Below, one piece after another: positions 52,949 through 54,848 of a stretch of 64,000 nt of DNA (positions within the stretch are counted from its first letter, which is position 1; every line of letters starts with the position of its first letter). The stretch comes from Escherichia coli (GTDB lineage: Bacteria > Pseudomonadota > Gammaproteobacteria > Enterobacterales > Enterobacteriaceae). Location of the stretch: assembly GCF_011045215.1 (NCBI RefSeq), contig NZ_CP049202.1. One strand, given 5' to 3'. The notes under the pieces are model-generated. The model was not told where the DNA came from. It searched no databases and saw nothing but the letters and a program-made list of their open reading frames with translations. The position numbers and the translations under genes were made by a program.

Positions 52949-53698
52949 TTACGATATATTAATCATGTTTTTTTTCATTTCCATTGGAGTGATACCAAAG
53001 TATTGCCTGAAGGTACTAATGAAATAAGAAGTACTTGAATATCCACATCTTGTTGCTAACTTATTTATAGATAATTCACTTATCATTAAACGTCTGGCAT
53101 GTTGCATACGCACATCTAACAAGATTTGAGAAAAAGATGTGTTTTCTTCATAAAGTTTTCTTTTTATAGAACTTTCACTCATGTAAAGATACTGCCCAAT
53201 ATCTTTCATTTTCCATATTCGTGATGGTTGTGAATATATAATACATCTTATTTTCATTACCAATGAGTTGATGCTTTTAACCAACAGAGATAAGAACCCT
53301 GTTTGCTCAGAAAATGCTGAAATACATGTAAAAAACATCTGCTCTGAAAATGCAATGGGTAGTAATGTATCGGAATTGAGTTTTCGTATTATACTGCGTA
53401 AGATAGATACCTCTTCTAATGGTGCTTTTATATAATGTGTAACATTCGGATTTTCTACATACAATGGTATACAGGTGCATTCCAGATACTTTGTTATTGT
53501 TTTTTCACTAATTTTTAATTCTGTAAATTTACTGGAATATACATAAAAATCATATCTTGATCTACTATCTGTTAGAAAAGCATGATTTTTATTTGCTTTT
53601 ATTTTTTTTCCATCGATGTTAATGATGAATGATGAATTAACCAGAATTACTGAACAGGGATACATCTCAATTGCTCCATTATTTAGTTCATAAGCCAT
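52949..53698 (-). CDS. AraC-family virulence-type regulator (AggR/Rns/PerA-like, C-terminal HTH)
   Basis: 249-aa ORF; C-terminal …GYSSTSYFISTFRQYFGITP… typical of this subfamily; very AT-rich. Confidence 0.65.
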   Translation of the reverse strand: MAYELNNGAIEMYPCSVILVNSSFIINIDGKKIKANKNHAFLTDSRSRYDFYVYSSKFTELKISEKTITKYLECTCIPLYVENPNVTHYIKAPLEEVSILRSIIRKLNSDTLLPIAFSEQMFFTCISAFSEQTGFLSLLVKSINSLVMKIRCIIYSQPSRIWKMKDIGQYLYMSESSIKRKLYEENTSFSQILLDVRMQHARRLMISELSINKLATRCGYSSTSYFISTFRQYFGITPMEMKKNMINIS

Positions 53699-54230
53699 AC
53701 CATTGTTGAATGATGGGGTTGTATGTCATGTATATGGAAAATGTATATATATCTTTTAAAGTCACCTCTCCCGATAAATTATTAATTCATCATAACTTAC
53801 TCCTGACTTATAAATAATTTTGTTGTAACTATGGTTTTATCTAGAATTTTCTCGGTGTTATGCGTTTCAGTTATTTGTAAATAATATTAAATATATTCTA
53901 TGTGTTATTTTTGTTATTTTGGAACAAAATTAACTTGTTAACAATAATAACTTTTACAAGTTCAATGAAATTAAACGATTTAGTCAATATTCATAATTAT
54001 GGTTTGACTCATAGTTATATAAAAATACCTTTAATATATATCAATACATTGAAAATATTGGTATTTTATTTTTTTTGTTGTTTTGTTTTTTGTATCATGT
54101 TGTTCTTAAAAAAGAAAAGTGTACATAAAAATTAACATACCTCCTTATTGGTATTTTTTATGGTTTCTACATTACCGTGATATAATTTATTCGCAGTATA
54201 TATAAATTTTACTTATTGTTGGAGATGGAA
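53699..54230. promoter_or_regulatory. AT-rich divergent intergenic region between AraC-type regulator and YfdX-family gene
   Basis: About 530 bp, extremely AT-rich, between divergently oriented genes; promoter positions not determined. Confidence 0.3.
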
Positions 54231-54848
54231 ATGAAATACATTCTTAGTGTGGTTGCTCTTTCAGTATCACTGATATCCACTTCTGCGTTAGCTCAGGATT
54301 CCCATATAACCGGTGAACCTCATATACAGGAAGTATCAACTGTTACAGAGAAAAACATTAAGCTTGAGCAGCGTGGAATGGAGGTTATAAGAGATATCCA
54401 ATATTCCCGTTTGTCTTTATTTAGTGGCGATACATCTACAGCCAGTAAATTGATAAAAAAAGCTAATGATTTATTGGGTTCTGAATATAAAACATGGGAA
54501 TCAATTATCAGAAAAGACAAAAAAGCGCCACAAAAAGATGATGTATACGTCATCATTAACAGTCAACTGACGCTTGCAGAAGATTTTACAGCTACACCAG
54601 AAAAGCAGAAAGCCATTGATGAAGCAAATAAAAAACTGGATAAAGGTGACAAAAAAGGTGCAATTGAAAAACTGCAGTTGGCAGGAATTAATATATCTGA
54701 AACACAGTGGCTTATGCCTTTAAAACAGACTCAGCAGAAAGTGAGGAGTGCACAGATCTTGATGGCTGAAGGTAAATATTACGAAGCCAATCTCGCTCTG
54801 AAAGGTGCTGAAGATGGCATAATTATGGATACGGTCAGCTTTCACTAA
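54231..54848 (+). CDS. YfdX-family periplasmic protein
   Basis: About 205 aa from Met (MKYILSVVAL…) within track ORF 54216..54848; signal peptide; recognised as YfdX-like. Confidence 0.55.
   Translation: MKYILSVVALSVSLISTSALAQDSHITGEPHIQEVSTVTEKNIKLEQRGMEVIRDIQYSRLSLFSGDTSTASKLIKKANDLLGSEYKTWESIIRKDKKAPQKDDVYVIINSQLTLAEDFTATPEKQKAIDEANKKLDKGDKKGAIEKLQLAGINISETQWLMPLKQTQQKVRSAQILMAEGKYYEANLALKGAEDGIIMDTVSFH

Follow-up and report, generated by a model that had tools for sequence, protein, structure and literature searches.

Acid resistance sets the infectious dose of Escherichia coli and its persistence in the gut. GadW and GadX converge on gadE/hdeAB and on the glutamate-dependent acid-resistance system (AR2), and to our knowledge the same is true of every characterised member of the clade of AraC/XylS regulators to which YdeO, AppY and PatE belong. 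Specifically, YdeO is an activator of gadE, gadW, slp, hya and appC (PMC4222967), gadE and AR2 genes are direct targets of AppY, as noted also for the prophage regulators PatE and PsrB (PMC10057817), and PatE and PsrA/B raise GadE/hdeAB expression and repress LEE, the enterocyte effacement locus (PMC10877973). A protein of a different kind, the YfdX of Klebsiella, is a periplasmic acid-stress chaperone (PMC6394985). Here we describe a locus in which these two kinds of protein are encoded side by side, at positions 52949 to 54848 of a 64,000-nucleotide stretch of E. coli contig NZ_CP049202.1 (the window, by which we mean the whole stretch of DNA that was analysed). A gene for a YdeO-family regulator and a gene of the yfdX family stand there head to head in an AT-rich islet bounded by insertion sequences (IS). 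With moderate confidence we read this islet as horizontally acquired stress-response cargo of an IncF-type plasmid, an H-NS-silenced mobile acid-stress islet that would supply a YdeO-family activator together with a YfdX periplasmic chaperone.

The regulator is encoded on the minus strand in an open reading frame (ORF) of 249 aa at 52949..53698. Its true start is most likely the ATG at 53665, which is M12 of this frame and gives a 238 aa protein from a gene at 52949..53665, because a GGAG is located 8 nt upstream of this ATG, the resulting N-terminus matches those of its relatives, and NCBI's own protein for the gene (P0001, 238 aa) begins at the same residue. Read from M12, the protein opens with M-Y-P-C-S-V-I-L-V, in agreement with the MxxVCSV pattern at the beginning of YdeO, AppY and GadW. 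Its C-terminus has the ~100-residue domain with two helix-turn-helix (HTH) motifs that is characteristic of the AraC/XylS family, with Pfam HTH_18 covering residues 169-243 (E 2.7e-17) and HTH_AraC also matching (E 8e-10). A preliminary description of this DNA had reported an AraC-family protein with a C-terminal HTH from the 249-aa frame, and that much stands. Chance ORFs are excluded for both genes of the pair because these are long open frames in 29% GC DNA that show strong homology to known proteins. The assignment of the regulator gene draws on ORF, Pfam, NCBIfam and BLASTP results, a tree and an AlphaFold model.

The same description had placed this protein among the AggR/Rns/CfaD/PerA virulence regulators and had asked for its phylogenetic position. 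For this comparison we used reference proteins from annotated records, namely YdeO, AppY, EnvY, GadW, GadX and AdiY of K-12, PatE of O157 Sakai and, on the Rns side, AggR, CfaD and VirF from plasmids and PerA from pMAR2. BLASTP aligned the regulator end to end with K-12 YdeO (41.5% identity over 229 aa, E 3e-58), with PatE (35%), GadW (34%) and AppY (31%) as its other full-length matches. In contrast, AggR, CfaD, VirF and PerA aligned at 33-38% identity over residues ~126-240 only (from ~137 for AggR and CfaD). The N-terminal domain is 33% identical to that of YdeO and 7-14% identical to those of AggR, CfaD, VirF and PerA, and the corresponding values for the DNA-binding domain are 50% for YdeO and 29-35% for the Rns-side proteins. 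A neighbour-joining tree of 22 proteins (200 bootstraps; PsrA and PsrB not among the sequences compared) joined the regulator, its ~50%-identical E. coli relatives and a common plasmid paralog with YdeO in 187 of the 200 replicates. The larger acid clade was likewise recovered in 187/200, and AggR, CfaD, VirF and PerA formed a separate group in all 200. The regulator thus shows full-length homology to the YdeO/GadW/AppY/PatE clade and groups with it to the exclusion of the Rns proteins, with which it shares neither a cluster nor an N-terminal domain. Nor does it cluster with metabolic AraC members, since its companions are acid-stress regulators.

Profile searches gave the same picture. YdeO is the sole full-length NCBIfam match of the regulator (180.6 bits, residues 15-244 aligned to profile positions 5-233 of 253). 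This score is below the 348-bit cutoff of the YdeO equivalog model NF007407, and the protein is therefore to be called a YdeO-like paralog and not YdeO. When 1.84 billion representatives were searched exhaustively with HMMER, only nine proteins were returned at E <= 1e-30, and the closest full-length relatives that were scanned are all YdeO-like with sub-threshold scores. Based on full-length identity, N-terminal-domain identity, the NCBIfam match and the tree, the sequence identifies the regulator as an uncharacterised paralog of the YdeO family that is not of the AggR/Rns type.

A structure model of the regulator, built by AlphaFold with 38 relatives, has a mean predicted local distance difference test score (pLDDT) of 92 and a predicted template modelling score (pTM) of 0.82. 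It consists of an N-terminal beta-sandwich, helical linker elements and a seven-helix DNA-binding domain. When compared with the PDB by Foldseek, the model had full-length matches to CsvR, Rns and ToxT alone (E 1e-11 to 1e-7), at a template modelling (TM) score of ~0.4 that is this low because the domain orientation differs. The C-terminal domain superimposes on the GadX DNA-binding domain (3mkl) with a TM score of 0.9 and a root-mean-square deviation of 0.8 A, and sequence matches of the regulator in the PDB include Rns (E 8e-15). At the level of fold, a two-domain architecture of the Rns/CsvR/ToxT type is thus present, and in this restricted sense the protein would work like activators of the Rns/ToxT type. 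No full-length structure of YdeO, GadW or AppY is found among the PDB hits, and the matches to CsvR, Rns and ToxT therefore reflect shared architecture and not subfamily.

The second gene of the pair is on the plus strand. Its open frame extends over 54216..54848 (210 aa from a TTG), and the start is most likely the ATG at 54231, giving a gene at 54231..54848 and a protein of 205 aa, because a GGAG is found 6 nt upstream and the annotation of strain C5 uses the same start. Judged from its sequence, the N-terminal stretch MKYILSVVALSVSLISTSALA/QD looks like a typical Sec signal peptide that comprises the first 21 residues. The protein scores 223 bits against NCBIfam PRK10316, below the equivalog cutoff of 256, and it matches the solved YfdX chains 3dza, 6uxt and 6a02 at E 3e-46 to 5e-42; Pfam PF10938 is assigned to the identical gene product in another contig (L009). 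The family match and the predicted signal peptide together put it in the YfdX family (PF10938), in line with the secreted YfdX-like neighbour of the preliminary description. It is 40% identical to K-12 YfdX, and a paralog on the chromosome of strain C5 shares 75% identity with it. At the DNA level the gene is a mosaic, with a 3' half that is 92% identical to the chromosomal paralog (L002:5730-6341; C5, RM11911 and others) and a 5' half that is too diverged from it for megablast, and it therefore looks like a recombinant. A terminator-like hairpin follows on the plus strand at 54884..54910 (11-bp stem, seven GC pairs, weak T run). Just 3' of the regulator stop codon there is, on the minus strand, a 17-bp perfect-stem hairpin at 52885..52935 (-26.6 kcal/mol by RNA folding, z -4.8, with 0/200 shuffles folding as well), a possible terminator in which the U tract is weak.

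The two genes are transcribed away from a shared control region at 53666..54230. The preliminary description had them back to back at ~530 bp; the divergent pairing is confirmed, with the genes head to head, and the spacer measures 517 bp between the listed ORFs or 565 bp between the likely starts. This region has a GC content of only 23.7%, compared to 30.3% for positions 52949-54848 and 45.8% for the whole window. Among 1242 sliding 1900-bp windows positions 52949-54848 rank as the fourth lowest in GC, with a value equal to the minimum, in agreement with the very AT-rich islet that had been described. The islet as a whole, taken as the cargo between the IS sequences, occupies 52773..55017 (~2.25 kb, GC ~31%). 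A pattern search of the spacer revealed two core matches to tCGATAAATT, the high-affinity motif of H-NS (PMC2094087). One is cCGATAAATT at 53771..53780 on the plus strand (core from 53772), which matches the motif at nine of ten positions, and the other is CGTTTAATT at 53969..53977 on the minus strand. Local shuffles lead one to expect 0.05 such motifs (P(>=2)=0.0015). In composition (GC of 24-30% versus 46%) and in motif content the sequence resembles H-NS-silenced xenogeneic DNA, and the motifs and the 24% GC of the spacer support, by inference, H-NS silencing of the islet. The spacer also contains, ~45 nt upstream of the yfdX ATG, a perfect extended -10 element TGaTATAAT at 54178..54186 on the plus strand that is recognised by consensus match only and has a poor -35, a layout that makes it a candidate activator-dependent yfdX promoter. 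A 77-aa ORF in the spacer (53902-54135) was rejected as a gene, being a low-complexity AT-rich frame without support, and an Rfam scan of 52500-55300 returned no family and one sub-threshold snoRNA match that we take as noise.

Judging from what is known of these families, the islet would work as follows. Under ordinary conditions its DNA is probably silenced by H-NS. The regulator, once made, would probably bind AT-rich promoter DNA and activate transcription by recruitment of RNA polymerase and/or by displacement of H-NS. Since the clade converges on gadE/hdeAB and AR2, the targets of the regulator most probably lie in the acid-fitness island of the chromosome, and by analogy the regulator is probably an input to the chromosomal network for glutamate-dependent acid resistance (gadE, hdeAB). 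In addition, it may activate the neighbouring yfdX promoter, and we consider the adjacent yfdX a likely local target, again by analogy. As a result, cells would survive acid or envelope stress better in the gut of the (bovine) host.

In origin the window is an E. coli plasmid of the IncF type with a mosaic make-up. From ~42.9 kb on, its right third shares 99.8% identity with plasmid A (NZ_CP010123.1) of C5, a bovine strain, and the left part matches other regions of C5 plasmid A and of the bovine plasmid NZ_CP076271.1. At the megablast level the islet is present in C5 alone among 5426 complete E. coli genomes, and a single one of 72,556 plasmid records contains it. In a large protein collection the identical regulator occurs as 15 member sequences on 18 contigs. 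The yfdX gene and the same IS110 adjoin it in those contigs that are long enough to show both, and at least 12 of the contigs with the identical regulator retain the pairing with yfdX. The window itself has both frames intact. The C5 version of the regulator gene (L001:10061-10794) is annotated as two fragments as a result of two 1-nt deletions, one in mid-gene that splits the frame and one close to the 3' end, within an A8 run. A different YdeO-like gene, 40% identical to the regulator, is much commoner. It was seen in 203 of the 5426 complete genomes of E. coli, for the most part on IncF plasmids from poultry, pigs and humans, and in the record examined (L012:6013-6747, NZ_CP019262.1) it adjoins a PerC-family gene. 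Our literature search found no paper on the regulator described here or on this commoner plasmid paralog.

The reading of the islet as one stress-response unit has to be weighed against a simpler one, in which IS shuffling joined unrelated pieces of AT-rich cargo, the regulator, if active, serves distant targets only (chromosomal or other plasmid ones) with yfdX left under host factors, or the islet is decaying junk. We regard this second account as possible, with a minority share of the probability. IS remnants are present on both sides of the islet in surroundings that are heavily rearranged and pseudogenised, and the mosaic relation of yfdX to its chromosomal paralog fits such a history as well. 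Several further observations weigh against a functional unit. For example, the spacer contains no recognisable regulator sites. The EvgA box (TTCYTACANNTGTARGAA), a pattern that we validated on K-12 safA, yfdX and frc, has no match with up to three mismatches anywhere near the islet. The YdeO box, an ATTTCA inverted repeat with a 9-21 nt spacer (PMC4222967), has no inverted-repeat match in the control region with up to one mismatch, and two with up to two mismatches versus 2.9 expected. In the absence of an EvgA box and of YdeO boxes beyond chance, the known inputs and outputs of YdeO are therefore not simply transferable; the YdeO-box specificity of the regulator may also differ, its DNA-binding domain being 50% identical. 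To this is added that the score of the regulator on the YdeO model is about half of the equivalog cutoff, that the islet is rare, and that the C5 copy, the only one on a complete plasmid, has a broken frame, whether as a pseudogene or through an assembly error. Nor is the pairing with YfdX a general feature of the family. No AraC gene was found within 4 kb of YfdX at any of 39 loci with one genome per species, in a scan with two peptide patterns that returned few Enterobacteriaceae and so under-sampled the relevant hosts. No YfdX gene adjoins the nearest relatives of the regulator, namely P0005 (~50% identity), the 40% plasmid paralog and P0015, which is found on IncFII plasmids. The nearest YfdX paralog (75%) likewise lacks an AraC gene beside it, and among the AraC-clade loci that we fetched YfdX was found only in this same islet.

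Other evidence argues against a chance juxtaposition. The two intact frames of the window and the recurrence of the identical regulator in 15 sequences and 18 contigs speak against this second account, and divergent genes with a long shared control region are typical of regulator-target pairs. AraC-clade genes are also found near YfdX genes in independent settings on Salmonella and other E. coli plasmids. Specifically, IncF plasmids of Salmonella serovars Onderstepoort and London carry a GadX/GadW-like AraC gene (~241-244 aa) directly upstream of yfdX, and E. coli pLD39-1 has an AppY-like pseudogene 3 kb from yfdX with IS1 copies between them. In K-12, a perfect-type EvgA box is present at yfdX and also at safA, the gene immediately upstream of ydeO, and because both have such boxes YfdX and YdeO appear to answer the same EvgA signal and to belong to one acid-stress circuit. 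A functional link between the regulator and yfdX is thus plausible but unproven. Close to the Salmonella plasmid loci (L023:3976-5492, L072:3971-5477) there are another, longer AraC gene and a gene for a KUP potassium transporter, and one of these plasmids also has the type III secretion system (T3SS) gene sctC near the AraC-yfdX locus. The ~50%-identical relative P0005 (252 aa; L003-L008) occupies chromosomal islands of E. coli, where its neighbours are an IS256-type transposase and a diguanylate cyclase of the MASE4-GGDEF type. Between regulator and cyclase are 1.7 kb without a called gene, and some of these loci also have a PerC gene and a sulfatase in the vicinity.

A second alternative is that the regulator is AppY-like and controls anaerobic and energy-starvation genes (hydrogenase 1, cytochrome bd-II, acid phosphatase). 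It is in the same clade as AppY, with 31% identity over the full length, and YdeO itself activates hya and appC (PMC4222967). However, the regulator is nearer to YdeO than to AppY, and AppY acts mainly through gadE/AR2 (PMC10057817); this alternative is therefore a shade of the acid-stress explanation and not a true competitor of it, and on its own account we consider it improbable.

The least probable account is that of a virulence master regulator of the AggR/Rns/CfaD/PerA type governing the fimbrial operon, an adhesin and secreted factors, which a plasmid-borne, AT-rich gene for ~250 aa would suit, as would the structural matches to CsvR, Rns and ToxT, the sequence match to Rns and the fact that AggR-type sites are so degenerate that AT-rich promoters readily fit them (PMC6392122), and which we regard as very improbable given the separate clade in every bootstrap, the unrelated N-terminal domain and structural matches that, with no YdeO, GadW or AppY structure among the PDB hits, say little on subfamily. 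AggR-type sites (WWWWWWWTATC) are not enriched in the spacer, with 6 found versus 4.6 +/- 2.0 in shuffles, but in 24% GC DNA a motif as degenerate as this tells little (PMC6392122). An ANR (Aar-type) or PerC partner gene is common in the AggR/Rns subfamily, but is not universal. None was detected within the window by tblastn with one ANR protein of enterotoxigenic E. coli (ETEC) and two PerC proteins (best E 0.16).

The fimbrial and adhesin loci that the preliminary description had offered as targets also give no support to such a role. The fimbrial operon is of the Pef-type chaperone-usher kind (3703-7523, minus strand), with a usher that is annotated PefC/AfrB in related plasmids and a major subunit that scores 243 bits on the PefA equivalog versus a cutoff of 227. 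Plasmid NZ_CP076271.1 has the same Pef-type fimbrial region and the same sugar cluster with no match to the islet at the megablast level. The trimeric autotransporter adhesin (TAA) gene at 40385-43912 on the minus strand codes for 1175 aa with Ata/EmaA/YadA-type repeats and a C-terminal anchor, and its matches are all far below named-family cutoffs. Directly downstream of it is a Rob-like AraC gene (39180-40085, minus strand) with an N-terminal HTH and a sub-threshold score of 138 bits on the RobA model. A second Rob-like AraC gene (31615-32454, minus strand), also with an N-terminal HTH and sub-threshold on RobA at 112 bits, is located in a cluster of glycosyltransferase, VirK and phosphoadenosine phosphosulfate (PAPS) reductase genes. 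These two Rob-like genes are nearer candidates for local control than the YdeO-like gene, which should not be read as a master switch of the plasmid fimbriae or adhesin.

The borders of the islet are formed on both sides by IS sequences, as had been described. On the left is a truncated IS3-family element at 52291..52772 on the plus strand, made up of a transposase C-terminal fragment and an IS end. The fragment (52291-52722) corresponds to positions 236-369 of 369 in the NCBIfam transpos_IS3 profile and is annotated in C5 as 'IS3 family transposase, missing N-terminus', and the IS end is deduced from 52600-52772, which is a 90% match to another IS3 copy at 45619-45784. On the right, the sequence from ~55018 on is an IS end that matches hundreds of unrelated plasmids and chromosomes. 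This right flank (55018..56721) has an IS2/IS3-type left end and an OrfA fragment (55201-55509; NCBIfam IS2 TnpA, 112 bits) together with an inserted IS110, the transposase gene of which is at 55669-56721 on the minus strand (NCBIfam IS110, 346 bits; also annotated in C5). The two flanking IS3-type fragments have no detectable mutual similarity, which gives no support to a composite transposon made from two copies of one element. Further to the left of the IS3 fragment, a group II intron reverse transcriptase/maturase is spread over at least three frames (frameshifted; 50644-52174, plus strand), and left of this intron are ISKra4 fragments and a serine recombinase gene. To the right of IS110 are two adjacent ORFs of 172 and 133 aa (56925-57844, minus strand) without an NCBIfam match, the second of which possibly has an HTH-like N-terminal part.

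If the stress-response reading of the islet is correct, it suggests, together with the other plasmid-borne paralogs, that conjugative plasmids of livestock E. coli carry regulators of the AppY/PatE kind, in this case linked to a periplasmic chaperone, and if the islet is functional then acid tolerance could spread by conjugation. A stronger form of this reading, which we put forward only tentatively and think rather unlikely in full, is that of a self-contained, transferable plasmid acid-stress switch in which the regulator activates yfdX directly and also takes over the glutamate decarboxylase (GAD)/acid-fitness regulon of the recipient. Were this true, type III secretion of LEE-positive hosts might be repressed, as it is by PatE and PsrA. 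Together with the presence of the commoner paralog in 203/5426 genomes, it would also mean that the acid resistance of E. coli is routinely rewired by plasmids as well as by prophages.

Finally, we compared the locus with the systems that it most resembles. The virulence regulators AggR, Rns, CfaD, CsvR, PerA, VirF and ToxT share with our regulator the two-domain architecture, the AraC double HTH and an AT-rich, plasmid-borne gene. AggR, Rns, CfaD, PerA and VirF differ in that they belong to another clade, have an N-terminal domain that is essentially unrelated, and find no counterpart here to an ANR or PerC partner. The regulators AppY (DLP12 prophage), PatE (OI-8/Sp1 prophage) and PsrA/PsrB (prophages of enterohaemorrhagic E. 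coli, EHEC) are likewise cargo of mobile elements with a length of ~240-250 aa; in Sakai prophage Sp6 no AraC-like gene was found. PatE and AppY fall in the same broad clade as our regulator with full-length homology, but are prophage-borne, whereas the regulator here is plasmid-borne and nearer to YdeO than to either of them. YdeO of K-12, which stands in the acid-resistance cascade EvgA > YdeO > GadE, is the closest of all, with end-to-end homology, the same length class, the same MxxVCSV N-terminus and a shared clade. The setting is different, however, as K-12 ydeO adjoins safA/ydeP and the gene described here is on a plasmid, in an IS-bounded islet and divergent to yfdX, with a spacer that has neither an EvgA box nor a YdeO-box inverted repeat. 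As for yfdX, the gene product shares with those of K-12 and Klebsiella the family and the signal peptide, and the family has a role in acid stress (PMC6394985). In K-12 yfdX is the first gene of the EvgA-activated yfdX-frc-oxc-yfdV-yfdE region, whereas yfdX of the window lacks an EvgA box and is not followed by oxalate genes. The uncharacterised Salmonella IncF loci are similar to the islet in that an AraC gene adjoins a YfdX gene on a conjugative plasmid. They differ in having both genes in tandem on the same strand, a regulator that is nearest to GadX/GadW, and a YfdX that is 41% identical to that of the window. Thus, prophage-borne regulators of the YdeO/AppY type that reprogram acid resistance are known, and what the present locus adds is a rare plasmid-borne member of this group that is linked to a YfdX chaperone.

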